Shown: positions 12,001 to 42,899, numbered from the stretch's first letter. The stretch is 64,000 nucleotides of DNA from Pristiophorus japonicus (GCF_044704955.1 NC_092002.1:12152001-12216000), one strand, 5' to 3'. The notes: generated by a model not told the origin, from the letters alone. Program-made: numbers and translations.

Positions 12001-13374
12001 CACCGACACACTGATATAAACACACACTGACACACTGATATAAACACACACTGACACACTGATATAAACACATTGACACACTGATATAAACACCCTGACA
12101 CACTGATATATACACACACTGACACTGATATAAACACACTCTGACACATTGATATAAACACACACTGATATAAACACACACTGACACACTGATATAAACA
12201 CACACTGACACTCTGATATAAACACACACTGACACACTGATATAAATACACACTGACACTGATATAAACACACACTGATATGAACACACACTGACACACT
12301 GATATAAACACACATTGACACACTGATATAAACACACACTGATATAAACACACACTGACACACTGATATAAACACACACTGATATAAACACACACTGACA
12401 CACTGATATGAACACACTGACACACTGATATAAACACACACTGGCACACTGATATAAACACACACTGATATAAACACACACTGACACACTGATATAAACA
12501 CACACTGATATGAACACACACGGACACACTGATATAAACACACACTGATATAAACACACACCGACACACTGATATAAACACACACTGACACCTGATATAA
12601 ACACATACTGCTATAAACACACACTGTTATTAACACACACTGACTCACTGATATAGACACACATTGACACACTGATATAAACACAGTGACACACTGATAT
12701 AAACACACACTGACACACTGATATAAACACACACTGACACTGATATAAACACACACTGACACTGATATAAACACACACTGATATAAACACATTGACACAC
12801 TGATATAAACACACACTGACACACTGATATAAACACCCTGACACACTGATATAAACACACACTGAAATAAACACACACTGACACACTGATATAAACACAC
12901 ATTGACACACTGATATAAACACACACTGACACACTGATATAAACACACACTGACACACTGATATAAACATACACTGATATAAACACACACTGGCACACTG
13001 ATATAAACACATTGACACACTGATATAAACACACACTGACACACTGATATAAACACCCTGACACACTGATATAAACGCACACTGATATAAACACATTGAC
13101 ACACTGATATAAACACACACTGACACACTGATATAAACACCCTGACACACTGATATAAACACACACTGAAATAAACACACACTGACACACTGATATAAAC
13201 ACACATTGACACACTGATATAAACACACACTGATATCAACACACACTGACACACTGATGCAAACATACACTGATATAAACACACACTGATATAAATACAC
13301 ACTGATATAAACACACACTGATATAAAACACTGATATAAACACACACTGACACTGATATAAACACACATTGACA
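1..13374. repeat. Modular satellite of CTGATATAAACACACA (16-mer) interspersed with CTGACACA/CTGACA modules; lies in the FOXA3 intron and continues past the left edge
   Basis: Continuous array seen directly; the + strand is A/C-rich. It generates all the CVYISV/CLYQC ORFs in the track. Confidence 0.98.
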
Positions 13375-13846: not shown

Positions 13847-13918
13847 CTCGCCAGGGTCCGAATATAAACTGCTCCACTCCGGCATTTCATGTGATTCCAT
13901 TTTCACTGAACCCAACAT
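13847..13918 (-). CDS. FOXA3: Forkhead box A3 (HNF3-gamma), first coding exon, MLGSVKMESHEMPEWSSLYSDPGE
   Basis: ATG at 13918-13916, 24 codons, then donor GAG|GTCAGT at 13846. Matches the FoxA N-terminal exon as recalled (human FOXA3 MLGSVKMEAHDLAEWSYYPEAGE; fish foxa3 SVKMESHE.PEW). Linkage to DMWD favours A3. The forkhead-domain exon is outside the window. Confidence 0.88.
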
Positions 13919-22006: not shown

Positions 22007-25000
22007 CCAGCGCTCACTGTATCCGCTCTGTGCCAGTGCTCACTGTATATTCCCTGTGCCAGTGCTCACTGTATACGCTCTGTGCCAGTGCCCACTGTAT
22101 CTGATCTGTGCCAGTGCTCACTGTATATTCCCTTTGCCAGTGCTCGCTGTATATTCCCTGTGCCAGCGCTCACTGTTTCCGCTCTGTGTCAGCTCTCACT
22201 GTATCCGCTCTGTGCCTGCACTCACTGTATCCACTCTGTGCCTGCGCTCACTGTATCCGCTCTGTGCCAGCTCTCACTGTATCCGCTCTGTGCCAGTGCT
22301 AGCTGTATCTGCTCTGTGCCAGTGCTCACGGTAGCTGCGCTTGGTCAGTGCTAGCTGCATCTGCTCTGTGCCAGTGCACACTGTGTCCGCTCTGTGCCAG
22401 TGCTCACTGTGTCTGCTCTATGCCAGCTCTCACTGGATCCGCTCTGCACCAGTGCTAGCTGTATCTGCTCTGCGCCAGTGCTAGCTGTATCTGCTCTGTG
22501 CCAGTGCCCACTCTATCCGCTCTGTGCCAGCTCTCACTGTATCCGCTCTGTGCCAGTGCTCACTGCATCCACTCTGTGCCAGTGCTAGCTGTATCCACTC
22601 TGTGCCAGTGCTAGCTGTATCCGCTCTGTGCCAGCACTCACTGTATCTGCTCTGTGCCAGTGCTCAATGTATCTGCTCTGTGCCAGTGCTCACTGTATCC
22701 GCGCTGTGCTAGCGATCACGGTATCTGCCCTGTGCCAGTGTTAGCTGTATCCGTCCTGTGCCAGTGCTCACTGTATCTGCCCTGTGCCAGCGCTCATTGT
22801 ATCCGCTCTGTGAAAGTGCCCATGGTATCCGCTCTATGCCAACGCTCACTGTATCTGCCCTGTGCCAGTGCCCACTGTATCCGTTCTGTGCCATGCTTGC
22901 TGTGCCGCACTGTGCCAGTGCTCACTGTATCCGCTCTGTTCCAGTGCCCACTGTATCCGCTATGTGCCAATGCTCACTGTTTCCGCTCTGTGCCCGTGTC
23001 CACTGTTTCCGCTCTGTGCCAACGCTCACTGTATTGGCTCTGTGCCAGTTGCCACTGTATCCGCTCTGTGCCGGCGCTCAATATATCCATTCTGTGCCAG
23101 CGCTCGCTGTATCCGCTCTGTGCCAGTGCCCACTGTATCCGCTCTGTGCCAGTGCTCAATGTATTCACACTGTGCCATCGCTCGCTGTATCTGCTCAGTG
23201 CCAGTGATCACTTTATCCGCTATGTGCCAGTGCCCACTGTAACCGCTTTGTGCAAGCACTCACTATACCCGCAATGTGTCAGCGCTCGTTGTATCTGCTC
23301 TGTCTCGGTGCCCACTGTACCCACTCTGTGCCAGCGCTCACTGTATCCACACTGTGCCAGCGCTCGCTGTATCTGCTTTGTGATCACCGTATCTGCTCTG
23401 TGCCAGTGCTAGCTGTATCCGCTCTGTGCCAGCGCTCACTGTATCTGCTCTGTGCCAGTGCTCACTGTATCTGCTCTGTGCAAGTGTTTACTGTATCCAC
23501 TCTGTGCCAGTGCTAGCAGTATCCGCTCTTTGCCAGTGCTCACTGTATCTGCTCTGTGCCAGTGCTCGCTGTATCTCATCTGTGTCAGTGCTTACTGTAC
23601 CTGACATATGCCAGTGATCACTGTATCTGCTGTGTCAGCACTCACTGTATCTGCTCTGTGCCAGTGCTGGCTGTATCTGCTCTGTGCCAGTGCCCACTTT
23701 ATCCGCTATGTGCCAATGCTCACTGTATCTGCTCTGTGCCAGCGCTCACTGTATCTGCTCTGTGCCGGTGATCACTGTGTCTGCTTTGTGCCAATGCTCA
23801 CTGCATCTGATCTGTGCCAGTGCTCACTGTATCCGCTCTGTGCCAGCACTCACTGTATCCGCTCTGTGTCAGTGCTCACTCTATCCGTTCTGCGCCAGTG
23901 CTCTTGTATCTGCTATGTGCCAGCGCTGGCTGTATCTGTCCTGTGCCAGTGCCCACTGTATCTTCTCTGTGCCAGTGCCCACTGTATCCGTCCTGTGTCC
24001 GCGCTCACTGTATCTGCTCTGTGCCAGTGCTCACTGTATCTGCTCTGTGCAAGTGTTTACTGTATCCGCTCTGTGCCCGTGCTAGCAGTATCCGCTTTTT
24101 GCCAGTGATCACTGTATCTGCTCTGTGTCAGCACTCACTGTATCTGCTCTGTGCCAGTGCTGGCTGTATCTGCTCTGTGTCAGTGCCCACTGTATCTGCT
24201 CTGTGCCAGTGATCACTGTGCCTGCTTTGTGCCAATGCTCACTGCATCTGATCTGTGCCAGTGCTCACTGTATCTCATCTGTGTCAGCGCTCACTGTATC
24301 CACTCTGTGCCAGCACTCACTGTATCCGCTCTGTGTCAGTGCTCACTCTATCCGTTCTGCGCCAGTGCTCTTGTATCTGCTCTGTGCCAATGCTGGCTGT
24401 ATCTGTCCTGTGCCAGTGCCCACTGTATCTTCTCTGTGCCAGTGCCCACTGTATCCGTCCTGTGTCAGCGCTCACTGTATCTGCTCTTTGCTAGTTCCCA
24501 CTGTATCCAGTCTGTGCCATCGCTCACTGTGTTCCCCCTGTGCCACTGCTCACTGTATCTGCTCTGTGCCAGTGCCCACTGTATCTGCCCTGTATCACTG
24601 CTCACTGTAACTACTCTGTGCCAGTGCTCACTGTATCTGCTCTGTGCCAATGCTAGCTGTATCTGCACTGTGCCAGTGCCCACTGTATCCGATCTGTGCC
24701 ACTGCCCGCTGTATCCGCCCTGTGCCGGCGCTCACTGTATCCGCCCTGTGCCCACGCTAGCTGTATCCACTCTTTGCCAGTGCTAGCTGTGTCCACTCTG
24801 TGCCAGTGCTCACTGTATCTGCTCTGTGACAACGCTAGCCGTATCTGCCCTGTGCCAGTGCCCACTGTGCCTGCTCTGTGCCAGTGCTAGCTATATCCGC
24901 TCTGTGCCAACACTCACTGTACCCACTCTGTGTCAGCACTCACTGTATCCGCTCTGTGCCAGCACTCACTGTATCCGCTCTGTGTCAGTGCTCACTCTAT

Positions 25001-28000
25001 CCGCTCTGCGTCAGTGCTCACTGTATCTGCTCTAAGCCAATGCTGGCTGCATCTGTCCTGTGCCAGTGCCCACTGTATCCGCTCTGTGCCAGTGCCCACT
25101 GTATCTGTCCTGTGCCAGCGCTCACTGTATCTGCTCTTTGCCAGTTCCCACTGTATCCAGTCTGCGCCAGCGCTCACTGTATTCCCCCTGTGCCCCTGCT
25201 CACTGTATCTGTGCTATGCCAGTGCCCACTGTATCCGTCCTGTGCCACTGCTCACTGTATCTACTCTGTGCCAGTACTCACTGTATCTGCTCTGTGCCAA
25301 TGCTAGCTGTATCTGCACTGTGCCAGTGCCCACTGTATCCGCTCTGTGCCACTGCCCACTGTATCCATCCTGTGCCAGCGCTCACTGTATCCGCTCTGTG
25401 CCCACGCTAGCTGCATCCACTCTTTGCCAGTGCTAGCTGTGTCCACTCTGTGCCAGTGCTCACAGTATCTGCTCTGTGACAACGCTAGCCGTATCTGCCC
25501 TGTGCCAGTGCCCACTGTCTGCTCTGTGCCAGTGCCCACTGTAGCCGCCCTGTGCCAGCGCTCACTGTATCCGCTCTGTGCCAGCGCTCACTGTATTCCC
25601 GCTGTGCCCGCACTCATGGTATCTGCTATGTGCCAGTGCCCACTGCATCCGCTCTGTGCCAGCGCTCACTGTATCCGCTCTGTGCCAGTGCTCACTGTAT
25701 CTGCTCTGTGCCAGTGCTCACTGTATCTGCTCTGTGCTAGTGATCACTGTATCTGCCCTCTATCAGCACTCACTGTAACTGCTCTTTGCCGGTGCCCACT
25801 GTATCCTCTATGTGCCAGCGCTCACTGTATTCTCCGTGCCACTGCTCACTGTATCTGCTCTGTGCCAGTGCCCACTATATCCGTCCTGTGCCACTGCTCA
25901 CTGTATCTGCTCTGCGCCAGTGCTCACTGTATCTGCTCTGTGCCAGTGCTCACTGTATCTGCTCTGTGCCAATGCTAGCTGTATCTGCCCTGTGCCAGTG
26001 CCCACTGTATCCGCTCTGTGCCACTGCCCACTGTATCCGCCCTGTGCCCGCGCTCACTGTATCCGCTCTGTGCCAACGCTAGCTGTATCCGCTCTGTGCC
26101 AGTGCTAGCTGTATCCACTCTGTGCCAACGCTGGCTATATCTGCCGTGTGCCAGCGCTAACTGTATCCGCTCTGTGCCAGCGCTCACTGTATTCCCCTGT
26201 GCCAGCGCTCATGGAATCTGCTCTGTGCCAGTGCCCACTGTATCCGCCCTGTGCCAGCGCTCACTGTATCCGCTCTGTGCCAGTGATCACTGTATCTGTT
26301 CTGTGCCAGTGCTCACTGTATCTGCTTTGTGCCAGTGATCACTGTATCTGCTCTGTGTCAGCGCTCACTGTATCTGCTGTGCCAGTGCCCATCGTATCCA
26401 CTCTGTGCCACGCTCACTGTGTCTGCTCTGTGCCAGCGGTCACTGTATCTGCTCTGTGCCAGCACTCACTGCATCCGCTCTGTGCCAACGCGCACTGTAT
26501 CCGCTCTGTGCCAGTGCCCACTGTATCCGCTCTGTGCCAGTGTCCACTTTATACGCCCTGTGCCAACGCTCACTGTATCCGCTCTGTGCCAGCGCTCACT
26601 TTATTCCCCCTGTGCCAGCGCTCACGGTATCCGCTCTGTGCCAGTGCCCACTGTATCCGCCATGTGCCAGTGCCCACTGTATCCGCCCTGGGCCAGCGCT
26701 CACTGAATCTGTTCTGTGCCAGTGCTCACTGAATCTGTTCTGTGCCAGTGATCACTGTATCTGCTCTGTGCCAGCGCTCACTGTATCTGCTCTGTGCCAG
26801 TCCCCACTGTCTCCACTCTGTGCCAACGCTCACTGCATTTGCTCTGTGCCAGTGCTCACTGTACCTGCTCTGTGCCAGCGCTAGCTGTATCCGCTCTGTG
26901 CCAATGCTCATTGTATCCGCTCTGTGCCAGAGCTAGCTGTAACCGCTCTGTGCCAGAGCTAGCTGTATCCGCCCGGTGCCATTGCGCACTGTATCCGCTC
27001 TGGGAAAGTGCTCACTGTATCCGCTCTGTGCCAGAGCTAGCTGTATCCGCTCTGTGCCAGCTCTCACTGTAACTGCTCTGTGCCAGTGATCACTGTAACT
27101 GCTCTGTGCCAGTGCCCACTTTATCCGCTCTGTGCCAACGCTCACTTTATCCGCTCTGTACCAACGCTCACTGTATCTGCTATGTGCCAGTGATCACTGT
27201 ATCTGTTCTGTGCCAGTGCCCACTGTATCGCTCTGTGCCAGCGCTCACTGTATCCGCTCTGTGCCAGTGTCCACTGTATCCGCCCTGTGCCAACGCTCAC
27301 TGTATTCCCCCTGTGCCAGCACTCACGGTATCCGCTCTGTGCCAGTGCCCACTGTATCCGCCATGTGCCAGTGCCCACTGTATCCGCCCTGGGTCAGCGC
27401 TCACAGTATCCGCTCTGTGCCAGTGGTCACTGTATCTGTTCTGTGCCAGTGGCCACTCTATCTGTTCTGTGCCAGTGATCACTGTATCTGCTCTGTGCCA
27501 GCGCTCACTGTATCTGCTCTGTGCCAGTCCCCACTTTATCCAATCTGTGCCAACTCTCACTGTATCTGCTCTGTGCCAGTGCTCACTGTACCTGCTCTGC
27601 GCCAACGCGCACTGTATCCGCTCTGTGCCAACGCTCACTGTATCTGCTCCGTGCCAGCGCTAGCTGTATCCGCTCTGTGCCAATGCTCATTGTATCCGCT
27701 CTGTGCCAAAGCTAGCTGTAACCGCTCTGTGCCAGAGCTAGCTGTATCCGCCCGGTGCCATTGCGCACTGTATCCGCTCTGAGAAAGTGCTCACTGTATC
27801 CGCTCTGTGCCAGAGCTAGCTGTATCCGCTCTGTGCCAGCTCTCACTGTAACTGCTCTGTGCCAGCTCTCACTGTAACTGCTCTGTGCCAGTGCCCACTT
27901 TACCCGCTCTGTGCCAACGCTCACTGTATCTGCTCTGTGCCAGTGCTCACTGTATCCACCCTGTGCCAGCTCTCACTGTATCCACTCTGTGCCAGTGATC

Positions 28001-28998
28001 ACTGTATCTGTTCTGTGCAGTGCTCACTATATCTGCTCTGTGCTAGTGATCACTGTATCTGCTCGGTGCTAGTGATCACTGTATCTGCTCTGTGCCAGCG
28101 CTCACTGTATCTGCTCTGGGCCAGTGACCACTGCATCCACTCTGTGCCAGTGCCCACTGTATCGCTCCGTGCCAGCGCTCACTGTATCTGCTCTGTGCCA
28201 GTGCTAGCTGTATCCGCTCTGTGCCAATGCTCACCGTATCTGCTCTGTGCCATTGCACACTGTATCTGCTCTGGGAAAGCGCTCACTGTATCCGCTCTGT
28301 GCCAGAGCTAGCTGTATCCGCTCTGTGCCAGCTCTCACTGTAAGCGCTCTGTGCCAGCTCTCACTGTAACCGCTCTGTGCCAGTGCCCACTTTATCCGCT
28401 CTGTGCCTACGCTCACTGTATCTGCTCTGTGCCAGTGCTCACTGTATCTGCCCTGTGCCAGTTCTCACTGTGTCCACTCTGTGCCAGTGATCACTGTATC
28501 TGTTCTGTGCCAGTGCTCACTGTATCTGCTCTGTGCTAGTGATCACTGTATCTGCTCTGTGCCAGCGCTCACTGTATTTGCTCTGTGCCAGTGCCCACTG
28601 CATCCACTCTGTGCCAACGCTCACTGTATCCGCTCTGTGCCAGTGCCCACTGTATCGCTCTGTGCCAGCGCTCACTGTATCTGCTCTGTGCCAGCGCTCA
28701 CTGTATCTGCTCTGTGCCAGCGCTAGCTGTATCCGCTCTGTGCCAACGCTCACCGTATCTGCTCTGTGCCATTGCACACTGTATCTGCTCTGGGAAAGCG
28801 CTCACTGTATCCGCTCTGTGGCAGAGCTAGCTGTATCCGCTCTGTGCCAGCTCTCACTGTAACCGCTCTGTGCCAGTGCCCACTTTATCCGCTCTATGCC
28901 AACACTCACTGTAACCGCTCTGTGCCAGTGCTCACTGTTACCGTCCTGTGCCAGTGCCCACTTTATCCGCTCTGTGCCAGTATTCACTGTATCCGCAC
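22007..28998. repeat. 26-bp satellite GCCAGTGCTCACTGTATCCGCTCTGT (about 270 degenerate units)
   Basis: Seen directly. Each unit has the internal inverted repeat CAGTG-CT-CACTG, and higher-order duplications are visible. Confidence 0.97.
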
Positions 28999-28999
28999 T

Positions 29000-29340
29000 C
29001 GCGATACTCTGTGTGTCCGCTCGGGGGCAGTGCAGCTGCCGTCCTGCGTGATGACGTCAGCCCGTGAGCCTGAACCAGGAAGTCCGTGTGAACGCGGAAG
29101 GTGGGTGTCGCTGTCGCGGCTCCGGGGACTGGGAATGGCGGGGGGAGGGAGAGGGGGAGACCGAGGAACGGCGGGGGGAGGGAGAGGGGGAGACCGAGGA
29201 ACGGCGGGGGGAGGGAGAGGGGGAGACCGAGGAACGGCGGGCGGCGCACACCGGCTCCCGAGGCCCCGCGGGGCCGGCACTGAGTCACCGATCGGCGGCC
29301 GGTCAAACCCGGGCCGGTCCGATGGGAAATCCGCCAAAAC
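29000..29340 (+). promoter_or_regulatory. CpG-island promoter and probable non-coding exon 1 of the 101-aa gene
   Basis: CpG-dense. Perfect CRE TGACGTCA at 29052-29059, GGAAGT/CGGAAG ETS-like cores, donor AAG|GTGGGT at 29100/29101, TGAGTCA at 29281, and three copies of a G-rich 33-bp unit. Confidence 0.65.
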
Positions 29341-29343
29341 ACC

Positions 29344-29645
29344 TGTGTGAGGGTCAGGGGTTAGTGTGTGAGGGGGTCAGTGTGTGTGTCAGGGAGTCAG
29401 AGGTCAGTGTGTGAGAGAGTCAGGGGTCAGTATGTGGGGGTCAGGGGTCAGTGTGAGAGTCAGGGGTCGGTGTGCGTCGGGTCAATATGTGAGCGGGGTC
29501 AGGAGCCCGTGTGTGAGCGGGTCAGAGGTCAGTGTGTATGTGAGGGGTCAGAGGTCAGTATGTGCGTGTCGAGGGTCAGGGGTCCGTGTGTGAGCGGGTC
29601 AGAGGTCAGTGTGTATGTGAGGGGGTCAGGGGTCAGTATGTGAGA
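29344..29645. repeat. Degenerate minisatellite rich in GGGTCAG(A/G)GGTCA
   Basis: Seen directly; five perfect RGGTCA-N-RGGTCA elements. Confidence 0.85.
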
Positions 29646-29754
29646 TGGGGGAGAGGGTCTTGTCGCTCAGATTTCTAACAAACTTGTTTTCTGTGATTTA
29701 GCCTTAAGAATTGAAGCTGTTTAAGGATTCTTCTTGGCGTGAGGAGAGTGGACG

Positions 29755-29802
29755 ATGTCAGATGGAAGTAGAGGGCTTAGCCTTCCAGAGCTGGCACAGC
29801 AG
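29755..29802 (+). CDS. Uncharacterised 101-aa protein, coding exon 1 (MSDGSRGLSLPELAQQ)
   Basis: Acceptor TTTTCTGTGATTTAG| at 29701. First ATG of the exon is at 29755 with A at -3. Phase-0 donor CAG|GTAATC. Confidence 0.72.
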
Positions 29803-29964
29803 GTAATCCAGTCTGGTACAACAATTTACACATTACCCACTGTCTGATACAGCAGGTAAATCCCTAACCTGACCCTCTCCAGAGACACTAATCCATCCAA
29901 GCTAGTTACAGCCTCTCTGTCTGCCTGTCCCTATCACCGTCTCTACCCCTGTCTGTGCCTCATT

Positions 29965-30280
29965 ATCATAAGAACATAAGAAATAGGAGCAGGAGTAGGC
30001 TGTACGGTCCCTCGAGCCTACTCCACCATTCAATAACATCATGGCTGATCTACTTCACTTTCCCACACAATCCGCTTGATACCCTTTTGTGTCCAAAAAT
30101 CTAGGGATCTCAGTCTTGAATATACTCAACATCCACAGCCCTCTAGTTGAAAATTCGAAAGATTCACAGCAGTGAAGAAATTTCTTCTCGTCTCAGTCTT
30201 AAATGGCCGACTCCTTATCCTGAGACTGCGCCCACCCCTAGTTCTAGACTCTCCAGTCAGGGGCCACAACCTCTCACCAT
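29965..30280 (-). mobile_element. Degenerate CR1 3' fragment, followed by CT-rich low-complexity sequence to about 30590
   Basis: CATAAGAACATAAGAAATAGGAGCAGGAGTAGGC is the reversed CR1 tail. Confidence 0.8.
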
Positions 30281-30642
30281 CTATCTCTGTCTGTCTCTCC
30301 CTGTCTGTCTGTTTCTATCACTGTCTCTGTCCCTCTCTATCCCTGTTTGCCTGTCTCTATCGCTGTCTCTCTATCTCTGATTCTCTCTCTCTTTCTGTCT
30401 CTATCTCTGTCTCTCTCTAATCCTGCCTGTCTGTCTCTATCATTGTGTCTGTCTGTCTCTCTATTGCTTTCTGTCTCCCTATTGGTGTCTGTCTCTCTAT
30501 CACTGTCTGTCTCTCTATCTCTGTCTCTATCTCTCTCTAATCCTGCCTGTCTGCCTCTATCATTGTGTCTCTCTCTATCCCTGTCTGAGAGAGACAGTCA
30601 CATTCAGCTGAAACGATGTAATTCTGGCTCTGATTGTTAAAG

Positions 30643-30774
30643 ATAGCGCTGTGGAATTGGCTGAATTCTGAAGATGAGGCGAGCAAGCAGCTGTTGAAAG
30701 CAGTGACTGGAGCGCGATTGGCTCACTCACTGTTGCAGCGCCTGACGGGACAGGACACCATTAACCTGTACAAG
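30643..30774 (+). CDS. Uncharacterised 101-aa protein, coding exon 2 (IALWNWLNSEDEASKQLLKAVTGARLAHSLLQRLTGQDTINLYK)
   Basis: AG at 30641-30642, 132 nt open, donor AAG|GTAACG, phase 0/0; non-repetitive protein-like sequence. Confidence 0.8.
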
Positions 30775-30934
30775 GTAACGAGAAAGGCCGGCTGTGGACT
30801 CTTCCACCCTGGATCCGCTTCGGTTTGGTCTTAATCGCGAGGAGGTTCCTGATGGGTAAATCTGGGCGGAGGGGCTTCTGGAATGAGCATGTGATTATCA
30901 TGTGAAAAGGGGGAGGGGCCAATGGGGAAATCTC

Positions 30935-32245
30935 CCTGGGAGTGTTTGATGGAGACAGTGTAGAGGGAGCTTTACTCTGTATCTAACCCCGTGCTGTATC
31001 TGCCCTGGGAGTGTTTGATGGGACAGTGTAGGGGGAGCTTTACTCTGTATCTAACCCCGTGCTGTATCTGCCCTGGGAGTGTTTGATGGCACAGTGTAGA
31101 GGGAGCTTTACTCTGTATCTAACCCCGTGCTGTACCTGCCCTGGGAGTGTTTGATGGGACAGTGTAGAGGGAGCTTTACTCTGTATCTAATCCCATGCTG
31201 TACCTGCCCTGGGAGTGTTTGATGGGACAGTGTAGAGGGAGCTTTACTCTGTATCTAACCCCATGCTGTACCTGCCCTGGGAGTGTTTGATGGGACAGTG
31301 TAGAGGGAGCTTTACTCTATCTAACCAGTGCTGTACCTGCCCTCAGAGTTTTGGATGGGACAATGTAGAGGGAGCTTTACTCTGTATCTAACCTGTGCTG
31401 TACCTGCCCTCGGAGTGGGTGATGGGACAGTGTGGAGGGAGCTTTACTCTGTATCTAACCCCATGCTGTACCTGCCCTGGGAGTGTTTGATGGGACAGTG
31501 TAGAGCGAGCTTTACTCTGTATCTAACCCCATGCTGTATCTGCCCTGGGAGTGTTTGATGGGACGGTGTAGAGGGAGCTTTACTCTGTATCTAACCCCGT
31601 GCTGTACCTGCCCTGGGAGTGTTTGATGGGACAGTGTAGAGGGAGCTTTACTCTGTATCTAACCCCGTGCTGTACCTGCCCTGGGAGTGTTTGATGGGAC
31701 AGTGTAGAGCGAGCTTTACTCTGTATCTAACCCCATGCTGTATCTGCCCTGGGAGTGTTTGATGGGATGGTGTAGAGGGAGCTTTACTCTGTATCTAACC
31801 CCGTGCTATACCTGCCCTGGGAGTGTTTGATGGGACAGTGTAGAGGGAGCTTTACTCTGTATCTAACCCCGTGCTGTACCTGCCCTGGGAGTGTTTGATG
31901 GGATGGTGTAGAGGGAGCTTTACTCTGTATCTAACCCCGTGCTATACCTGCCCTGGGAGTGTTTGATGGGACAGTGTAGAGGGAGCTTTACTCTGTATCT
32001 AACCCCGTGCTGTACCTGCCCTGGGAGTGTTTGATGGGACGGTGTAGAGGGAGCTTTACTCTGTATCTAACCCCGTGCTGTACCTGCCCTGGGAGTGTTT
32101 GATGGGACAGTGTAGAGGGAGCTTTACTCTGTATCTAACCCCGTGCTGTACCTGCCCTGGGAGTGTTTGATGGGACAGTGTAGAGGGAGCTTTACTCTGT
32201 ATCTAACCCCGTGCTGTACCTGCCCTGGGAGTGGGTGTTGGGACA
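30935..32245. repeat. 68-bp minisatellite CCCTGGGAGTGTTTGATGGGACAGTGTAGAGGGAGCTTTACTCTGTATCTAACCCCGTGCTGTACCTG (about 19 copies), intronic
   Basis: Highly homogeneous head-to-tail units. Confidence 0.97.
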
Positions 32246-32451
32246 GCGTAGCAGGTGGCCCCCTGGAGGAGCAGCTGGATGGGGTAGGGAGCGTGGATCC
32301 GCTCCTCTGCAGCACGCCCTCGGTGTCTCTTCCCTCCCCGCCCGAGGAGCGTCAACAACTCTCGGGTGCTTTCCTGATCCTTTGTGTCGGGGGCCGTTGG
32401 AGAAACACTGTCACGATTCCAGCAGTAACCACGTTGCGTTCCCGTCCACAG

Positions 32452-32577
32452 AGGCAGTGCATCCTCGGCATGGCGGAGTTTGTGAAGGCCAATCCGCGCG
32501 CCTCGCAGTCTCAGCTGAACGAGGAGCTGAAGAAACAAGTGCTGCTGTTTGCAGTGCGAGTCAGTGCCTCCCAGTGA
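32452..32577 (+). CDS. Uncharacterised 101-aa protein, last coding exon (RQCILGMAEFVKANPRASQSQLNEELKKQVLLFAVRVSASQ*)
   Basis: Acceptor TTGCGTTCCCGTCCACAG| at 32451, phase 0, GC3-rich codons, TGA at 32575-32577. Candidate polyA signal ATTAAA at 32898-32903. Confidence 0.8.
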   Translation, partial: RQCILGMAEFVKANPRASQSQLNEELKKQVLLFAVRVSASQ

Positions 32578-33009
32578 CTCCCAGCCACAGGCCGATTGCG
32601 TGTAGAGTCTGGACCTTTGCCACTGTTTGAACTTGACTTGAGCGACCCCAATCGATGCCTTTTGTTAATCTCTCTGTCACATTCTCTCTCGCCCTTCATT
32701 CACTTCGCTGTGACATTCCCCAATGCTGTTGACTGTGTTACTAACCTCCTCATTCTTCCATGGAATTTCGAACTTGCTGAGAATGAAGCTTTGTTGCTGG
32801 GGTGCCTAATAAGGGGACTTCAGATTTATTATTGAACAGTTACACTAAAGTGTGCATTTGATCAGGAATGTTCCCTTTAAACATTGTGCCAAGCAACATT
32901 AAATCTCGGTAAACAAACTCTTCCAAGTCTACTCTTCAATCTCTCGTCGTCTTTGGGTTATTGAAACTTCTGCGTCTTCCAACTATGTTCTGTTTTGTGG
33001 CAGCTTAGG

Positions 33010-33997
33010 CCCGTGGCTCAGTGGGCAGCCCCCTCGCCTCTGAGTCAGAAGGTTGTGGGTTCGAGTCCCACTCCAGGGACTTGAGCACAAACATCCAAGT
33101 TGACACTCCCAGTGGAGTGCTGCAGTGTCAGAGGTGCCGTCTTTCGGATAAGACGCCCTGTTTGCCCTCGAGTTATCCCCGGTGTCCTGGCCAATATTTG
33201 TCCCTCAATCGACATCACTTTAAAAAAAAAACCCACAACAGATTATCTGGTTGCTGCAGGTGGGATCTTGCTGTGCGCAAATTGGTTGCCGCGTTCCTTA
33301 ATTTACAACAGTGACTACACTTCAAAAAAAGTACTTCATTGGCTGTAAAGCGCTTTGAGACGTCCGGAAGTCGTGAAAGGCGCTATAGAAATGCAAGTCT
33401 TTTTCCACCCGCATCTGGTCCTGAAACCAGCCTCTGTCGATATCTATCAGATCAGCTTTGTGCAATAGGGTGAGATGTAGTAGGAGGAGGCTTGTGTGGA
33501 GTATAAACACCGGCACGGACCCGTTGGACCGAATGGTCTGTTTCTGTGCTGTACGTGTCAGCTGTGGCTCACCTCGCCTCTGAGTCAGAAGGTTGTGGGT
33601 TCAAATCCCACTCCAGGGACTTGAGCACAAAAATCTAGGCTGACACTCCCAGTGCAGTGCTGAGGGAGCGCCGCACTGTCGGAGGTGCCGTCTTTCGGAT
33701 GAGACGTTAAACCGAGGCCCCGTCTGCTCTCTCGGGTGGACATAAAAGATCCCACGGCACTATTTCGAACAAGAGCGGAGGAGATGTCTTGGAGCCAATA
33801 TTTATCCCTCAATCAACAACAAAAACCAGATGATCTGGGTCATTATCACATTGCTGTCTGTGGGAGCTTGCTGTGCGCAAATTGCCTGCCGTGGTTCCCC
33901 CATTACAACAGCGACTACACGCCAAAAAGTACTTCATTGGCTGTAAAGCGCTTTGGGATATCCGTTGCTGGTGAAAGGCGCTATATAAATTCAAGTC
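33010..33997 (+). mobile_element. Two tandem Deu-domain SINEs (about 33010-33400 and 33560-33997)
   Basis: Same head, core and tail as the copy at 20275. Confidence 0.82.
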
Positions 33998-34039
33998 TTG
34001 TTACATTCCATGTCATTCACCCACACACACAGACTGCTG

Positions 34040-34457
34040 CGGGCCGGAGGGGGCGCTGTGGGCGGAGGCCGGAGCCGGGAGAGGAGAGGCCGGGCCGGAG
34101 GGGGCGCTGTGCGCGGAGGCCGGGAGAGGAGAGGCTGGGCCGGGCCGGGCCGGAGGGGGCGCTGTGGGCGGAGGCCGGGAGAGGAGAGGCCGGGAGGGGG
34201 CGCTGTGGGCGGAGGCCGGGCCGGGCCGGAGGGGGCGCTGTGCGCGGAGGCCGGGAGAGGAGAGGCCGGGAGGGGGCGCTGTGGGCGGAGGCCGGGCCGG
34301 AGGGGGCGCTGTGCGCGGAGGCCGGGCCGGGAGAGGAGAGGAGGGGCCGGGCCGGGCCGGGCCGGAGGGGGCGCTGTGCGCGGAGGCCGGGCCGGGAGAG
34401 GAGAGGAGAGGCCGGGGCCGGGCCGGGCCGGGCGGGTGTTGTGGCTTCGGGCTGAAG
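34040..34457 (+). promoter_or_regulatory. DMWD CpG-island promoter/5' UTR made of a GC-rich tandem repeat (8 x GGAGGGGGCGCTGTG)
   Basis: Directly upstream of the ATG; includes GGGCGGAG GC boxes. Confidence 0.75.
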
Positions 34458-34709
34458 ATGGCGGCCGAGGGCGGAGGCAAGGAGCTGAACGAGATCAAGT
34501 CGCAGTTCCGCACCCGGGAGGGCGCCTACAAGCTGCTCAGCCTGTCCGAGTACAGCCGCCCCAACCGGGTGCCGCTCAGCGCCGCGCAGGGCACCAACCC
34601 GGTGCGGGTGTCGCTGGTCAACGTGCGGGACCAGAGCGGCAGCGGGGACCGCATCTGCTTCAATGTGGGCCGCGAGCTCTACCTCTACTTGTACCGCGGC
34701 CCCAGGAAG
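34458..34709 (+). CDS. DMWD: DMWD (WDR20-family WD40 protein; USP12/USP46 complex partner family), exon 1
   Basis: MAAEGGGKELNEIKSQFRTREG..RICFNVGRELYLYLYRGPRK, 84 codons, donor AAG|GTAGGC. KSQFRTREG is DMWD-like (WDR20 has KTQFTTREG as recalled). Confidence 0.88.
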
Positions 34710-34724
34710 GTAGGCCCAGCCCTG

Positions 34725-35150
34725 GGGGCAGGGGTTGGGGTGTCAAGGGTTGGGGGTCAAGGGTGGTGGGGTGTCAAGGGTTGGGGGTCAAGGGTGGTGG
34801 GGTGTCAGGTAGTGGGGTGTTAAGGGTTGGGGGGTCAAGGGTGGTGGAGTGTCAGGTAGTGGGGGTCATATACTGTGGGAGGTTTAAGGGTAGTGAGTCA
34901 CAGGCTTGGGGTGTGGTGGATTCAAACCAGTTAGAGAGCGGTCACGGTTTGAGGGGCTGTCGTGTAGTGAGGGGGTCAAGGGTTGGGTGCCGGGTATTGG
35001 AGAGTTCAAGGGTTGGGTGTCGAGGGTAGTGGGGTGTCCAGGTAATGGGTAGTGGTGGGGAGGGTTAAGGGTAGTGGGTCACAGGTTAGGGGTCAGGTCG
35101 GGTGTGTGGTGGTTTGCGGTCTGGTAGTGAGGGGTCAAGAGTTGTGTGGT
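34725..35150 (+). repeat. G-rich low-complexity repeat (GGGGTGTCAAGGGTTGGGGGTCAAGGGTGGT-like) at the start of DMWD intron 1
   Basis: Seen directly; many G3-G6 runs. Confidence 0.8.
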
Positions 35151-35629
35151 CAGATAGTGAGGTAACAAGTTTTAGGATCAGGTAATGCGATATCAAGTTT
35201 TGGGATTAGGTAGTGAGATTTAGGGTCAGGTAACATGGGGGGGGGGAGAGAGAGAGGAAGAGTTCGGGTCAGGTAGCAGGGGATGGAGAACCAGTGCTCA
35301 TGGGCACAAGTGTTGGGAGACAAATGCAATGCAATACAATACCGAATGATCGCAAAACATCTGTTCCCATTAGAGCAGTGAAATACATTTGTATTTGTCA
35401 AGATGTTAATGTTTGTGATAATGGAATTACTCGGTGAGATATCAAGGGGGCCAGGCTGTGCGTTTACAAATTGTTTGGAGCTACAGGCTACATGGTCCCA
35501 TCAAACACTATCAGGCTAGATTGTCAAGCTGGCTGGATGGACAGTGTGTAACCCACAACATCATCCGGGGGGGAAGAGCAGCCAGCATTGGTTCAGTGAC
35601 TACATTTCAGGAAGTACTTCATTGGCTGG

Positions 35630-35860
35630 AGATTCTAGAACTAGGGAGCATAGTCTCAGGATAAGGGGTCGGCCATTTGGGACTGAGATGAGGGATTTCT
35701 TCACTCAGAGGGTGGTGAATCTTCGGAATTCTCTGCCCCAGAGGGCTGTGGAGACTCAGTCGTTGAGTATGTTCAAGGTTGAGATCGATACTTGGACTCT
35801 AGGGAAGTCAAGAGATATGAAGATCGGGCAGTAACGTGTAGTTAAGGTTGAAGATCAGCC
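35630..35860 (+). mobile_element. CR1 3' fragment
   Basis: SRTREHSLRIRGRPF..FFTQRVVNLRNSLPQ. Confidence 0.85.
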
Positions 35861-35944
35861 ATTCTTGTGTTCCGCTCATGCTGCTTGTAATACTGAGACC
35901 CAGAGCCGTCTGGACTGACAGTGAGTCTTTTATCTTCTCCTCAG

Positions 35945-36127
35945 GCAGCAGATCTGAGTAAACCCATTGACAAACGTATATACAAAGGGACGCAGCCCAC
36001 CTGTCATGATTTTAACCAGTTCACCGCGACACCCGACAGTGTCTCGCTCGTCGTGGGCTTCTCAGCAGGGCAGGTCCAGTACCTGGATCCCATCAAGAAA
36101 GAAACCAGCAAGTTGTTCAATGAAGAG
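35945..36127 (+). CDS. DMWD: DMWD exon 2
   Basis: Acceptor CTCCTCAG| and donor GAG|GTAGTG; AADLSKPIDKRIYKGTQPTCHDFNQFT..GQVQYLDPIKKETSKLFNEE (61 aa). FNQFT and QVQYLD are DMWD-type. Confidence 0.93.
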
Positions 36128-36433
36128 GTAGTGTCATCGCCCCAAGTACGAGTTGCACTTTCGAGGTTTGGCAATGATTCGGTCACTTTCTAACCAGCTG
36201 GGCAGCGGTTTCGGTTGTCCTGTTGTGGAGTGACGCAAGAGTGTTCGAGTCTACCCGAGTCTATCCTGTCCTTGTGGGGTGATTGAGTGTTCCTGAGTCT
36301 ATCCTGTCCTTACAGAGTGACTGTGTGTCCGTGAGTCTATCCATTATTGTGGAGTGACAGTGTTCCTGAGTCTATCCTGTCCTTGCAGAGTGATTGAGAC
36401 TGTTCCTGAGTCTGTCCCTGGGCACGGTAGTTT

Positions 36434-36625
36434 CATCATCATCATCATCATAGGTAGTCCCTCGAAGCGAGAATGGCTTGCTGCCACGCCAAAAAGGGAT
36501 GAGTTCAGAGGTGTTTCAATGTTCCAAATCCCGAACTAATATTCCGGATCCCGAACTACATGTTGAAGGGTGGAAGATGCCTGTGCGTGAATATTTTTAA
36601 CGTGCGGTGGCCGTTTTGGAGGATG
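36434..36625 (-). mobile_element. RTE-like 3' end fragment
   Basis: (CAT)n followed by AGGTAGTCCCTCG, similar to the RTE tails at 14712 and 40896. Confidence 0.6.
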
Positions 36626-36769
36626 TGGCACATGCGACTCCTCATCTGTAACAGAAAACAGCAGACGAGTGGTTAGCAGCAGGGGAGGGGGCAGGGTGAC
36701 ATGAGGAAGGTCACATAGCACAGGCTCATTTGAAATACTGCCCCGACTCCCATTATATGTAGTTCAACG

Positions 36770-38377
36770 ACACTACGTCACATTGCCCCAACCCTAGTCC
36801 ACAGACACTACGTCACATTGCCCCAACCCTAGTCCACAAACACTACATCACATTGCCCCAACCCTAGTCCACAGACATTACATCACATTGACCCAACCAT
36901 AGTCCAGAGACACTACATCACATTGCCCCAACCCTAGTCCACAGACACTACATGACATTGCCCTAACCCTAGTCCACAGACACTGCATGACATTGCCCCA
37001 ACCCGAGTCCACAGACACTGCATGACATTGCCCCAACCCTAGTCCACAGACACTGCATGACATTGCCCTAACCCTAGTCCACAGACACTGCATGACATTG
37101 CCCCAACCCTAGTCCACACACACTACGTCACATTGCCCCAACACTAGACAAGAGACACTACATGACATTGCCTCAACCCGAGACAAGAGACACTACATGA
37201 CATTGCCCCAACTCTAGACAAGAGACACTACATGACATTGCCCCAACCCGAGTCCAGAGACACTACATCACATTGCCCCAACCCTAGTCCACAGATATTA
37301 CGTCACATTGACCCAATAGTCCACAGACATTACATCACATTGCCCCAACCCAAGACAAGAGACACTACATCACATTGCCCCAACCCTAGTCCACACACAC
37401 TACATCACATTGCCCCAACCCTAGTCCAGAGACATGACATCACATTGACCCAAACCTAGTCCACAGATATTACGTCACATTGACCCAATAGTCCACAGAC
37501 ATTACATCACATTGCCCCAACCCTAGTCCACAGACACTACATGACATTGCCCCAACCTTAGTCCACAGACATTACATCACATTGCCCCAACCCTAGACAA
37601 GAGACACTACATCACATTGCCCCAACCCGAGACAAGAGACACTACATGACATTGCCTCAACCCGAGACAAGAGACACTACATGACATTGCCTCAACCCGA
37701 GACAAGAGACATTACATCACATTGCCCCAACCCTAGACAAGAGACACTACATGACATTGCCCCAACCCTAGTCCAGAGACACAACATCACATTGCCCCAA
37801 CCCTAGTCCAGAGACACTACATCACATTGCCCCAACCCTAGTCCACACACACTACATCACATTGCCCCAACCCTAGTCCAGAGACATTACATCACATTGA
37901 CCCAACCCTAGTCCACAGACATTACGTCACATTGCCCCAACCCGAGTCCAGAGACATTACATCACATTGACCCAACCCTAGTCCACAGACATTACGTCAC
38001 ATTGACCCAATAGTCCACAGACATTACATCACATTGCCCCAACCCTAGTCCAGAGACACTACATCACATTGCCCCAACCCTAGTCCACACACACTACAAG
38101 ACATTGCCCCAACCTTAGTCCACAGACATTACATCACATTGCCCCAACTCTAGACAAGAGACACTACATCACATTGCCCCAACCCTAGTCCAGAGACACG
38201 ACATCACATTGCCCCAACCCTAGTCCACAGACACTGCATCACATTGCCCCAACCCAAGACAAGAGACACTACGTCACATTGCCCCAACCCTAGTCCACAC
38301 ACACTATGTCACATTGCCCCAACCCTAGTCCACAGACACGACATCATATTGCCCCAACCCCAGTCCACAGACACTAC
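36770..38377. repeat. 35-bp minisatellite CATTGCCCCAACCCTAGTCCACAGACACTACATCA (about 46 copies), DMWD intron 2
   Basis: Period of 35 measured from 36781 to 36816. Confidence 0.96.
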
Positions 38378-38994
38378 TGGGGCTGTGGCTGAGAGTGTTG
38401 TGGACTGGAATCTTTGCGTCCTGCAGCAAGGCCTTTCAATGGAGAAGAGAAAGGACTGGGAGATCGTCGGTGCTCTCCCGTACTCCCTGGATCGAGAGGA
38501 CCGGGTGGCCTTGGGCTGAGGGCCAATAATGAGAAGCCTCCCATTTAACCGAGATCTTCCTCCCATTCGCTCCCTTCCATTCCTGCTGGCAATGTTATTT
38601 TTGTCACGTGGTCACTCGATTCACCCTCCCATTCCCCTTAGAATTTCCTTTGCCCGCCAATCCCGACGTGTAATGCTGCACACTGGAGGTCCCCTCAGCC
38701 CCGTTTAAAAATAACTTTCTCCCACTCAACTCACCGCATGAGTGGCACTCGGGATCCCAGCCTGTCACCTGCGTGGGCGGGATTTAAACCCAGCCCTTAC
38801 TGTGCCACCCACCTGACCTTTCACCTGGTTGGACCTTGGTGGGACAGCAGCGTGCGAGGCGCTGAATGTACTTTCTAATGTCCAGAGTTTTGACATTGGC
38901 AGTAAATCGCTCATCTCTGTCTTTGAAAGCTGCCACGGGATTTTGTATTCGGGGTTAAATCTAACACAGCTACCACCTCGTGCCATGGGGAATG

Positions 38995-40895
38995 GTAGCA
39001 TAGCGGCTATGTTGCTGGGCTAGTAATCTAGAGGCCTGGGCTAATGATCCAGAGACCCGAGTTCAAATCCCGCCACGGCAGCTGGAAGGATATAAATTCA
39101 GTAAATTAAATAAGTCTGGAGTATACAGCTAGTGTCGGTAATGGTGACCGAATTGTCGTCATAGCCCACTAATAGAATGCTGCACTGTCAGGTGCTGTCT
39201 TCCAGATGAGACATTAAACCGAGGCCCCGTCTGCTCTCAGGTGGACGTAGAAGATCCCATGGCTACTATTTCGAAGAAGAGCAGGGGCGTTCTCCCCGGT
39301 GTCCTGGGGCCAATATTTATCCCTCAATCAACACAACAAAAACAGATTATCTGGGTCATTATCACATTGTTGCTTGTGGGAGCTTGCTGTGCGTATTTTG
39401 GCTGCCGTGTTTCCTACATTACAACAGTGACTACACTTCGAAAGTGCTTCATTGGTCATAAAGCACTGTGGGACGTCTGGTGGTCGTGAAAGGCGCTATA
39501 TAAATGCAAGTCATTAATGTCCTTTAGGGAAGGAAATCTGCCGCCCTCACCCCGGTCTGGCCTATATGTGACTCCAGACCCACAACAATGTGGTTGACCC
39601 GTAACTGCCCCTCTGAAATGGCCTCTGGATTGTCTCCACATCACGGAGCTAAATATTCCGGGCGCATTTTGTGCAGAAGATCCGCTTTCTCTTATTTACT
39701 GAAAACCAAGGCTCCGTCCTTGGGCATATTTGGGGGTGAGAGGGCTTCGCTCGCCTGTTACTGGGCTTCTCCCCGCAGACAGCCAGCAAGGGGACTGAAC
39801 ACGATGCCGTGAGATACGGGCCGGGTTCCTAAGTCCCCTCGGCGCTGCCGGTTTTTGTTTCTCTGCTTCTTTGCTTCAGGGTCTTGAGTGTGAAAAATCT
39901 TAAGCTGACACTCCACCCCAGTGCAGTGCTGAGGGAGCGCCGCACTGTCGGAGGGGCCGTCTTTCGGATGAGACGTTAAACCGAGGCCCCATCTGCGCGC
40001 TCAAGAAAGACTTGCATTTAGATAGCGCCTTTCGCAACCACCGGACGTGTCTCGAACTGAATTTGAGCTTTTTAAAAAAAATTAATTCAGTGGACGCAAA
40101 AGACACTATTTCGAAGAAGAGCAGGGGAGTTATCCCCGGTGTCCTGGGGCCAATATTTATCCCTCAATCAACATAACAAAAAACAGTTCATCTGGTCATT
40201 ATCACATTGCTATTTGTGGGAGCTTGCTGTGCGCAAACTGGCTGCCGCGTTTCCTACATTACAACAGTGACCACACTTACAAAGTACTGGCTGTAAAGCG
40301 CTTTGGGACGTCCGGTGGCCATGAAAGGCGCTATATAAATGCAAGCCTTTCATGGCTTAAAGGGTTAAACTACGAGGGCAGGTTGCGTAAATGTGGTTCA
40401 CGCTCCCTTGAGTTCAGAAGGTTGACGGCCGATCCAATTGGGGTGCTTAAAATGGTAAAATGATTCAATAGGGATAGACACAGAGAAACTATTTGCTCTG
40501 TTGCGGGAATCCACCACAAGGTGGGGATAGTGTTAAGATGACAGTGAGGACATTTAGGAGTGAGATCAGGCAGCCTTTTTAATCTGGAACATTGCTGTTT
40601 GTGGGAGCTTGCTGTGCGCAAACTGGCTGCCGCGTTTCCCACATTACAACAGTGACCACGCTCCAAAAAGTACTTCATTGGTTGTAAAGCGCTTTTGGGA
40701 CGTACGGTGGTCGTGAAAGGCGCTATATAAACGCAAGTCTTTAATGTCCTTTAGGGAGGGAAATCTGCCGCCCTTACCTGGTCTGGGGCCTATACGTGAC
40801 TCCAGACCCACAGCAATGTGGTTGACGTTGAAATGGCCCAGCGAGCCACTCCGTTGTCACCACCGCCTTCTCGAGGGCAATTCGGGATGGCCAAT
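38995..40895 (+). mobile_element. Cluster of nested SINEs (Deu-domain SINE copies inside or next to a second tRNA-headed SINE family) with CR1 debris
   Basis: Head with GAGTTCAAATCCC at about 39059; Deu cores at about 39180-39510, 39900-40350 and 40590-40742; second-family core TCCTTTAGGGAAGGAAATCTGCC at about 39520 and 40747. Confidence 0.75.
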
Positions 40896-41218
40896 CACCA
40901 TCATCGTCACAGGCAGTCCCTCAAAATCGAGGAAGACTTGCTTCCACTCTAAAAGTGAGTTCTCAGGTGGCTGCACAGTCCAATACTAGAACCACAGTCC
41001 CTGTCACAGGTGGGACAGACAGTGGTTGAGGGAAAGGGTGGGCGGGGAGTCTGGTTTGCCGCACGCTCCTTCCGCTGCCTGCGCTTGCTTTCTGCACGCT
41101 CTCGGCGACGAGACTCGGGGTGCTCAGCGCCCTCCCGGATGCTCTTCCTCCTCTTAGGGCGGACTAGTCTTTGGCCAGGGACTCCCAGGTGCCGGTGGGG
41201 AATGTTGCACTTTATCAG
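40896..41218 (-). mobile_element. 5'-truncated RTE 3' end with a 15-bp target-site duplication
   Basis: Homologous to 14712-15320. Flanks TTCGGGATGGCCAAT (40881-40895) and TTAGGGATGGGCAAT (41219-41233) are 13/15 identical. Confidence 0.85.
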
Positions 41219-41395
41219 TTAGGGATGGGCAATAAATGCCAGCGATGCCCATGTCCCATGAATGAATTTTTTTTTTTTTAAAAAAAGCTCACATTCAGTT
41301 TGCGAGGTGTCCGGTGGTCAGGAGAGAGGCACGATACAAATGCAAGTCTTTCTTGGCAAGCAGTTAACGGTGGTTTCTTTCTCCTTGCGCCACAG

Positions 41396-42673
41396 AGGTT
41401 CATCGACAAGACCAAGGTGACGTGCCTGAAGTGGGTGCCGGAGTCCGAGAGCCTGTTCCTGGTCGCCCACACCAGCGGCAACCTGTACCTGTACAATGTG
41501 GAGCACCCCTGTGGCACGGCGGCCCCCCACTACCAGCCGCTGAAGCAGGGCTCCGGCTTCTCCGTCTACGCCTGCAAGAGCAAGTCGTGCCGTAACCCGC
41601 TGCTGAAGTGGTCGGTGGGCGAGGGGGCCATGCACGCCTTCGCCTTCGCTCCCGACGGCAAGCACGTGGCCTGCGCCAGCCAGGACGGCGGGCTGCGGGT
41701 CTTCCACTTCGACTCCATGGAGCTGCACGGGGCCATGAAGAGCTACTTCGGGGGTCTGCTGTGCGTGTGCTGGAGCCCCGACGGCCGCTACATCGTGACA
41801 GGCGGCGAGGACGACCTGGTGACGGTCTGGTCCTTCTGGGACTGCCGGGTGATCGCCCGGGGCCACGGCCACAAGTCCTGGGTCAGCGTGGTGGCCTTCG
41901 ACCCCTACACCAGCAGCGTGGGCGAGGGCGAGGCCCCCGAGCTCAGCGGCAGCGACGAGGAGCTGCCGGAGCGCCCCCCGCTGGCCCGGGCCCGCACCGC
42001 CAGCTCCCTGTCCCGCCTCTCCAAGCGCAACTCCGCCTCCGCCGACGGCCGTCCGCCGTCCAGCCTGACCTACCGCTTCGGCTCGGTGGGCCAGGACACC
42101 CAGTTCTGCCTGTGGGACCTGACCGAGGACATCCTCTTCCCCCACCAGCCCCTGTCCCGGGCCCGCACGCACACCAACGGAGTGGGTGGCGGCGGCGGCG
42201 GCCTTCCGTGGTCGCTGAGCGGCCTGGCGCTGGAGTCGGGCCCCGCCAACCCCCTGCCCCACTCGCTCTCCCGCTCCAACAGCCTGCCCCACCCGCCCGC
42301 CGCTCGCCCACCGGCCGGCAAGGCCCCCGCCACAGACGGGGGCGGCCCCTTCGCCGGCGGCGGCGGCCGGTTCGCCACGCTGACGCTGCACGACAAGGCC
42401 GCCGACAAGACCCACAAGCCCAGCCACGGTGTCGGCCACGCCGCCAGCAAGAGCAACGACAAGCTCCACCTGGTGCCCAGAAGCAAGCTCGACCCCGCCA
42501 GGGCCCTGGGCACCGCCTTGTGCCCCCGCATGGACGAAGTGCCCCTGCTGGAGCCCCTGGTCTGCAAAAAGATCGCCCACGAGAGACTGACGGTGTTGAT
42601 ATTCTTGGAGGACTGCATCGTCACTGCCTGCCAAGAGGGCTTCATCTGTACGTGGGCACGGCCAGGTAAAGTG
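41396..42673 (+). CDS. DMWD: DMWD exon 3 (WD40 repeats and long insertion)
   Basis: Acceptor CCACAG| and donor GTG|GTGAGT, 426 codons; MKSYFGGLLCVCWSPDGRYIVTGGEDDLVTVWSF, RFGSVGQDTQFCLWDL, KKIAHERLTVLIFLEDCIVTACQEG. Confidence 0.95.
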
Positions 42674-42899
42674 GTGAGTATGGGAGTGGCGGCTGGCCAG
42701 AGGCGTGGTCTCTGTCGCCTCCTCCAGCCCCACAACCCTCACTGCATGCCTCCAATTCTGGCCCCTTGAACATCCCCCCCCCCCACCCCATCTTGGATGT
42801 CCGAGGAGAGAATGAGTTTGAGCAGGAGATGGGACATTGAGTGTCAACAGAGTGAGGATGGAGGTTAAGAGGAACAAAGCAGGAGATAGACAGAACTTT

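Follow-up and report, generated by a model that had tools for sequence, protein, structure and literature searches.

Conserved vertebrate proteins that have neither a family nor a fold nor a name are, to our knowledge, now uncommon. The closest described relatives of the shark protein considered here are three deposited gene models and a few unnamed sequences. Chiloscyllium punctatum chiPu_0022903 (GCC38943.1, P0004) is 80% identical to it over exon 3, ends that exon at the same place and has a similar N-terminus, but its 79-aa model, which carries no name or function, runs into the following intron and lacks exon 4. NDU88_004245 of Pleurodeles waltl (KAJ1106847.1) and PAMP_021685 of Pampus punctatissimus (KAM7390962.1), likewise without a function, show 50% and 48% identity in exon 3 and share its invariant motif, but both models depart from the family where that exon ends. 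Two Logan proteins, P0005 and P0012 (94 and 98 aa), match the shark protein over their full length and bear neither name nor annotation. Helical hairpins such as those of the periphilin C-terminus (6swg_B), the ESCRT-I core (2p22_A) and FLU-GluTR (4yvq_A) have a geometry like that modelled for residues 49-98 (Z 6.5-7.3). Their sequence identity, however, is 2-8%, they are tied with unrelated proteins and they leave residues 1-48 unmatched; the likeness observed is one of geometry.

The gene lies between a FoxA gene and DMWD. A published account of the corresponding human region names DMPK, DMWD, FBXO46, FOXA3, LOC388553, QPCTL, RSPH6A, SIX5, SNRPD2 and SYMPK among its genes (PMC6444755). Here, we describe a computational analysis of a four-exon gene at 29040..32903 of a 64,000-nucleotide stretch of the Pristiophorus japonicus genome (the window), which we regard as almost certainly real. 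We present evidence that its introns are removed at the predicted sites, that its third exon is constrained and that its 101-aa product has relatives in other jawed vertebrates, and we weigh what such a protein might do.

Results

Gene structure and promoter

The features of the locus are collected in Table 1. The three introns, 29101-29701 (601 nt), 29803-30642 (840 nt) and 30775-32451 (1677 nt), all have GT..AG ends, and both introns that interrupt the coding sequence are in phase 0. The reading frame, from ATG 29755 to the TGA at 32575-32577, comprises 306 nt and encodes 101 aa with a single terminal stop. Its start codon is the first ATG of the mRNA model and is preceded within exon 2 by in-frame stops; the frame is the sole plus-strand ORF of at least 30 aa within the mRNA model, and base shuffles left it open in 220 of 20,000 trials. 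The original prediction, made from the sequence, had proposed three islands with canonical AG/GT ends that join in phase 0 into one open frame, followed by an ATTAAA, and each of these elements was found, the last at 32898. Exon 3 has one match genome-wide in P. japonicus, and the gene is single-copy. Most of the last intron consists of a 68-nt tandem repeat (19 copies, 30934-32251) that is abundant in all four of the sequencing runs checked for it.

Table 1. Features of the 101-aa gene and its flanks, in window coordinates
Feature	Position	Strand	Basis or remark
FoxA gene, first coding exon (FOXA3 by synteny)	13847..13918	-	second exon ~128 kb away, C28:12038086
CpG-rich, TATA-less putative promoter region with CRE and ETS-type motifs	28990..29330	+	composition and motifs
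Exon 1, non-coding	29089..29100	+	observed portion only; donor GT 29101; partial contig ends in X22, X23
Exon 2, 5' UTR, ATG 29755 and residues 1-16	29702..29802	+	contigs, frame
Exon 3, residues 17-60, conserved core	30643..30774	+	contigs, selection, homologues
Coding portion of exon 4 (residues 61-101, TGA), with a pair of long helices predicted	32452..32577	+	contigs, homologues, model
3' UTR, ending in ATTAAA (32898-32903)	32578..32903	+	X22 contig over 32638-32888, 0 differences
DMWD, 5' part; WD40 gene of WDR20/DMWD type, name by synteny	34458..42769	+	sequence search, Pfam

The putative promoter region has a CpG observed/expected ratio of about 1.0 and a GC content of 0.69-0.71. It contains a CRE, TGACGTCA, at 29052-29059 and an ETS-type motif, CAGGAAGT, at 29076-29083, and TATAAA is absent from 28990..29330. 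Motifs, CpG content and the GT at 29101 are thus all present where a CRE/ETS CpG-island promoter with a donor had been proposed, and a promoter of this kind would be expected to drive broad expression. A 26-nt repeat (270 copies, 22007-28996) stops just 5' of this region.

Splicing

Seven of 24 sequencing runs, which bear no RNA label on record, were examined, and contigs from four of them, representing two organisms and two studies, back splicing of the gene. In both organisms the contigs leave out the two coding introns at the predicted GT..AG sites; the 5' junction is represented in one of them. A single contig of run X22 (organism I) joins 29802>30643 and 30774>32452 with 0 differences from the window, and a single contig of run X1 (organism A) joins the same two junctions with 19 differences in exon 3; contigs of X23 and X2, two further runs of these studies, pass from 29802 into exon 3. 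The coding pieces of these contigs are free of gaps. At 29100>29702, the third junction proposed originally, the support is short: 5' of exon 2 the loose ends of X22 and X23 consist of a string that we take to be adapter-like together with 10 and 6 letters, respectively, of 29089-29098. Contigs of X5, X6 and X15 contained repeats only, those of X15 having nothing on exon 2. Contig depth is unsuited to ranking expression. Since exon 3 has a single genomic match, the intron-skipping contigs are not accounted for by a processed copy, and exact intron skipping combined with one genomic copy disfavours an origin of the contigs in DNA, although the runs carry no RNA label.

Homologues and the conserved last intron

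A phmmer (HMMER) search of 1.84 billion representatives with exon 3 as query returned eight homologues at E <= 0.001, the three named records, all hypothetical proteins, and five unnamed Logan proteins. Matches from bony vertebrates scored 34.9-40.7 bits, the lower value being that of the weakest match in the list. P0005 is newt-like (38/44 identical over exon 3 to the Pleurodeles waltl record), and P0006, P0008, P0009 and P0010 are teleost-like (29-30/44 to Pampus). P0012 (98 aa), which clusters with P0005, is full length and covers all three coding exons, with 42 of 98 residues identical to the shark protein and no internal gap (6/13, 22/44 and 14/41 by exon). In exon 4 its alignment scores 89, whereas shuffles average 19 and none of 10,000 reaches that score. 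Conversely, with P0005 as query the shark genome yielded no locus other than this one, matched in exon 3 (E 2.3e-6) and in exon 4 (E 0.197). These shark, teleost and newt homologues support the old vertebrate origin that had been put forward as a possibility, and on sequence grounds chiPu_0022903 is most likely its orthologue. That it was a hidden gene holds in part: we found no full named model, but partial models had already been deposited as hypothetical proteins.

Eleven of the 44 exon-3 positions are invariant in seven sequences (W22, L23, L34, A36, V37, T38, G39, R49, T51, Q53 and K60). They are mostly small or hydrophobic residues, and none is a His, Cys, Asp or Glu, on which many enzyme or metal sites depend. 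Seven of the eight homologues cease to match after the equivalent of K60, six of them continuing with Val, as read-through of a GT donor would yield, and all three named models leave the alignment at the end of exon 3. This loss of matching and the Val argue that the position of the last intron is likely conserved across the homologues and that their models are mis-built there. Four teleost-like read-through records fit the shark exon-4 peptide in a shifted frame, with 25-27 of 41 positions compared with maxima of 22-24 in 300 shuffles each. P0008, P0009, P0013 and P0015, all teleost-like, appear to keep a short last intron with exon 4 in a shifted frame; such records may stem from RNA not yet spliced, from genomic DNA or from regulated retention of the intron.

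Word-indexed protein searches gave no match to the 101-aa protein, and one of them also missed P0004 (79 aa, 80% identical), which is present in the same collection, so that their blanks carry no weight. Metagenome and viral contigs contained no relative. An exon-4-like stretch at C10:98979201-98979305 (minus strand) starts at the exon's first residue and is identical at 15 and similar at 26 of 38 positions; it contains two stops and has a genome-wide E of 0.76. Nothing resembling exon 3 accompanies it within 120 kb; it was therefore not accepted as a paralogue and is put down to chance or an old remnant.

Selection on the coding exons

Differences from organism A were counted in two zones for which the difference tables looked complete, 30643-30741 and 32485-32574, exclusive of exon 2 and UTR rows. 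This single pair gave 31 differences, 4 from X2 and the remainder from X1, some differences being missing from the tool output. Exon 3 has 10 synonymous and 6 non-synonymous changes (dN/dS 0.14, permutation P 0.007), and exon 4 has 4 and 11 (dN/dS 0.94, P 0.90, from few sites and one pair). Pooled over these 31 differences of one pair, the ratio is 0.34 and not significant (P 0.085). In this one pair, purifying selection is thus seen for exon 3 only.

Family and predicted structure

The protein could not be assigned to a family, as had been anticipated. With two of the exons as query, Pfam gave no family, and of the eight homologues seven gave none and P0005 two weak rows below the cut-off. 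The best NCBIfam match (E 0.018) and the one PHROGs row (E 0.007) were taken as chance. Sequence searches of the PDB returned 0 matches for three single queries and a best E of 0.67 for a profile (A1), and the ESM Atlas yielded no usable match. Rfam gave 0 matches at E <= 1 over 28900-34500, exons and introns included.

An AlphaFold2 model was obtained for the homologue P0012 rather than for the window protein, from an alignment of nine rows, five of them with unrelated tails. It predicts five helices (residues 7-22, 25-35, 37-48, 50-70 and 76-97) with a mean pLDDT of 78.6, best over residues 51-90, and a pTM of 0.47, a low value that may be a mere effect of the shallow alignment. Exon 3 of the window protein, modelled alone, is also helical. 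The homodimer prediction returned a score of 0.00 and no verdict. Foldseek found 0 matches at E <= 0.001 in the PDB and viral libraries. With VIA-align the exon-3 model reached a Z of 4.3 at best; the highest Z of the full model was 7.6 (rmsd 1.9, 49 aligned), which falls under the level that is meaningful in VIA-align for helical models. In the full model only residues 49-98 match, to many unrelated helix pairs, with 559 chains at Z >= 5 and none at Z >= 8. For this predicted model, the fold comparisons establish neither a known nor a new fold.

No hydrophobic 19-mer was found (maxima 0.54 and 0.67), nor any stretch fit for a signal or membrane anchor. The window protein has a pI of 9.4 and P0012 has 9 K+R against 11 D+E; net charge is not conserved between the two. 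The original description of an all-helical, soluble peptide is consistent with the predicted helices and the lack of a hydrophobic 19-mer, and the structure and fold search proposed with it gave five predicted helices in P0012 and no significant fold match.

Genomic neighbourhood

The order on C28 (11.90-12.19 Mb) is SYMPK (plus strand, 11.898 Mb), a radial-spoke gene (plus, 11.92-11.93 Mb), FoxA (minus, exon 2 at 12.038 Mb), the 101-aa gene (plus) and DMWD (plus), the names FOXA3 and DMWD resting on synteny. DMWD begins ~1.6 kb beyond the poly(A) signal of the 101-aa gene, and SYMPK and the radial-spoke gene lie ~250-285 kb away, beyond FOXA3. The human order we take to have RSPH6A and SYMPK between FOXA3 and DMWD. 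Both were considered as identities of the 101-aa gene and rejected. PF04712, of radial spoke RSPH4A/6A, is found in neither P0005 nor the exons, and the family maps to C28:11.92-11.93 Mb; alignment of the protein with the first matched exon frame of the radial-spoke gene scores 29, a value that 436 of 1000 shuffles attained. Symplekin_C (PF12295) is absent from the protein, and Symplekin maps to C28:11.898 Mb. Judged by these comparisons, the 101-aa gene is not a remnant of either gene.

Several other features of the region were recorded. Only one radial-spoke locus was found in the genome, by a search whose initial screen was more stringent. The ~128 kb FoxA intron is mostly tandem repeat (16-64 nt period) with interspersed LINE-like frames (window 1-13374 and L002-L011). 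A single-frame 93-aa LYR-motif protein (Pfam Complex1_LYR), which we presume to be SDHAF1-like, is encoded at L019:4839-5120 (plus strand), and L016:9247-9549 (plus) contains a GC-rich frame whose end, in our estimation, resembles the first exon of tubulin cofactor B. IRF2BP-type matches occur at C28:10201620, C4:231551240 and C3779:915, the C28 copy ~2 Mb from FOXA3; in human, we assume, a gene of this type adjoins FOXA3.

Discussion

The reading that we prefer, at roughly even odds, is that the 101-aa product is a small, soluble, non-enzymatic helical binding subunit that acts inside the cell. It is favoured because the protein is small, has no invariant residue of catalytic type and gives a model of good local and poor global confidence. 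The product would be a five-helix protein whose exon-3 motif (WL..L-x-AVTG..R-x-T-x-Q) may form a partner-binding surface; the part encoded by exon 3 might fold completely only on its partner or as an oligomer, and the C-terminal helix pair would serve as a scaffold that changes faster than the motif. The invariant residues R49, T51, Q53 and K60 could equally suit a ligand or nucleic-acid site.

About half as probable is that the protein belongs, in diverged form, to one of the known families of helical modules for docking or dimerisation, for example of the periphilin C-terminal, ESCRT-I core or RIIa/Dpy-30 type; a named mammalian orthologue may then have been missed by shallow searches. Residues 49-98 of the model align with TASOR-periphilin (6swg_B; Z 6.6, rmsd 1.6, 50 aligned, 2% identity) and with ESCRT-I (2p22_A; Z 6.5, rmsd 3.6, 50 aligned), and the search for homologues had reached the limit of what it could detect. 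These two alignments, however, rank level with dozens of helix pairs from unrelated proteins (best Z 7.6; none at 8 or more), profile A1 matched no PDB sequence under E 0.67 and Pfam reported nothing above its cut-off. The Lge1 family, which we took as a lead to periphilin, has no match in the P. japonicus genome. We consider it improbable that the protein binds nucleic acid or chromatin, with the helix-NPRASQ-helix segment acting like a helix-turn-helix, a segment that to our eye resembles the starts of CENP-B/ABP1-type domains. The window protein is basic (pI 9.4), R49, Q53 and K60 are invariant and the NPRASQ turn agrees with the frame-shifted reading of four teleost-like records, but P0012 is slightly acidic, the helices beside the turn span 21-22 residues in a model of low pTM, unlike a compact helix-turn-helix, Pfam reports no such family, and exon 4 is the less constrained exon.

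Slightly less probable still is a small ligand-binding or enzymatic protein of a new type, in which the R-x-T-x-Q and AVTG residues would line a site at an oligomer interface. Small and polar residues that are invariant and closely clustered, as these have been over some 450 million years, are what such a site would offer; on the other side, no typical catalytic or metal residue is invariant and no pocket-bearing fold was matched. That the transcript is non-coding or an RNA host with an incidental open frame we regard as very improbable indeed. The dN/dS near 1 of exon 4 in the single pair would agree with it, but the contigs' coding pieces have no gaps, Rfam gave no match at E <= 1 and the three coding exons show protein-level homology between the shark and a newt-like record; the full-length homology of P0012 refutes it in substance.

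As a type of gene, the locus is ordinary; what is new is a protein without a recognised family whose three named database relatives are partial. By the sequence comparisons the gene is ancient, and it is uncharacterised. By title or abstract start, the literature on the locus (FOXA3/DMWD synteny) and on the homologue accessions contained nothing about it; part of the searches returned unrelated papers, mostly human GWAS. A correct, unnamed model may exist in the RefSeq or Ensembl gene sets or behind a cluster representative. A bolder possibility, to which we give somewhat worse than even odds, is that an ancient family of jawed vertebrates, without relatives in Pfam or the PDB, has in the shark protein its founding full-length member. 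It would be a helical adaptor with a housekeeping role that sharks through amphibians have retained, that mammals or all amniotes have lost, and that was overlooked as gene models break at the last intron. No amniote is among the three named homologues, in a search at its detection limit. Since the bony-vertebrate matches sit at the edge of the list, an amniote orthologue could lie just under the cut-off, and because the shark gene order differs from the human one, an empty human FOXA3-DMWD interval is no proof of loss.

With the four-exon model corrected and candidate orthologues at hand from a teleost and a newt, knock-out and pull-down experiments become practicable in fish or amphibians. 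Should amniotes prove to be without the gene, it would cleanly illustrate how an ancestral gene of housekeeping type was lost in our own lineage.
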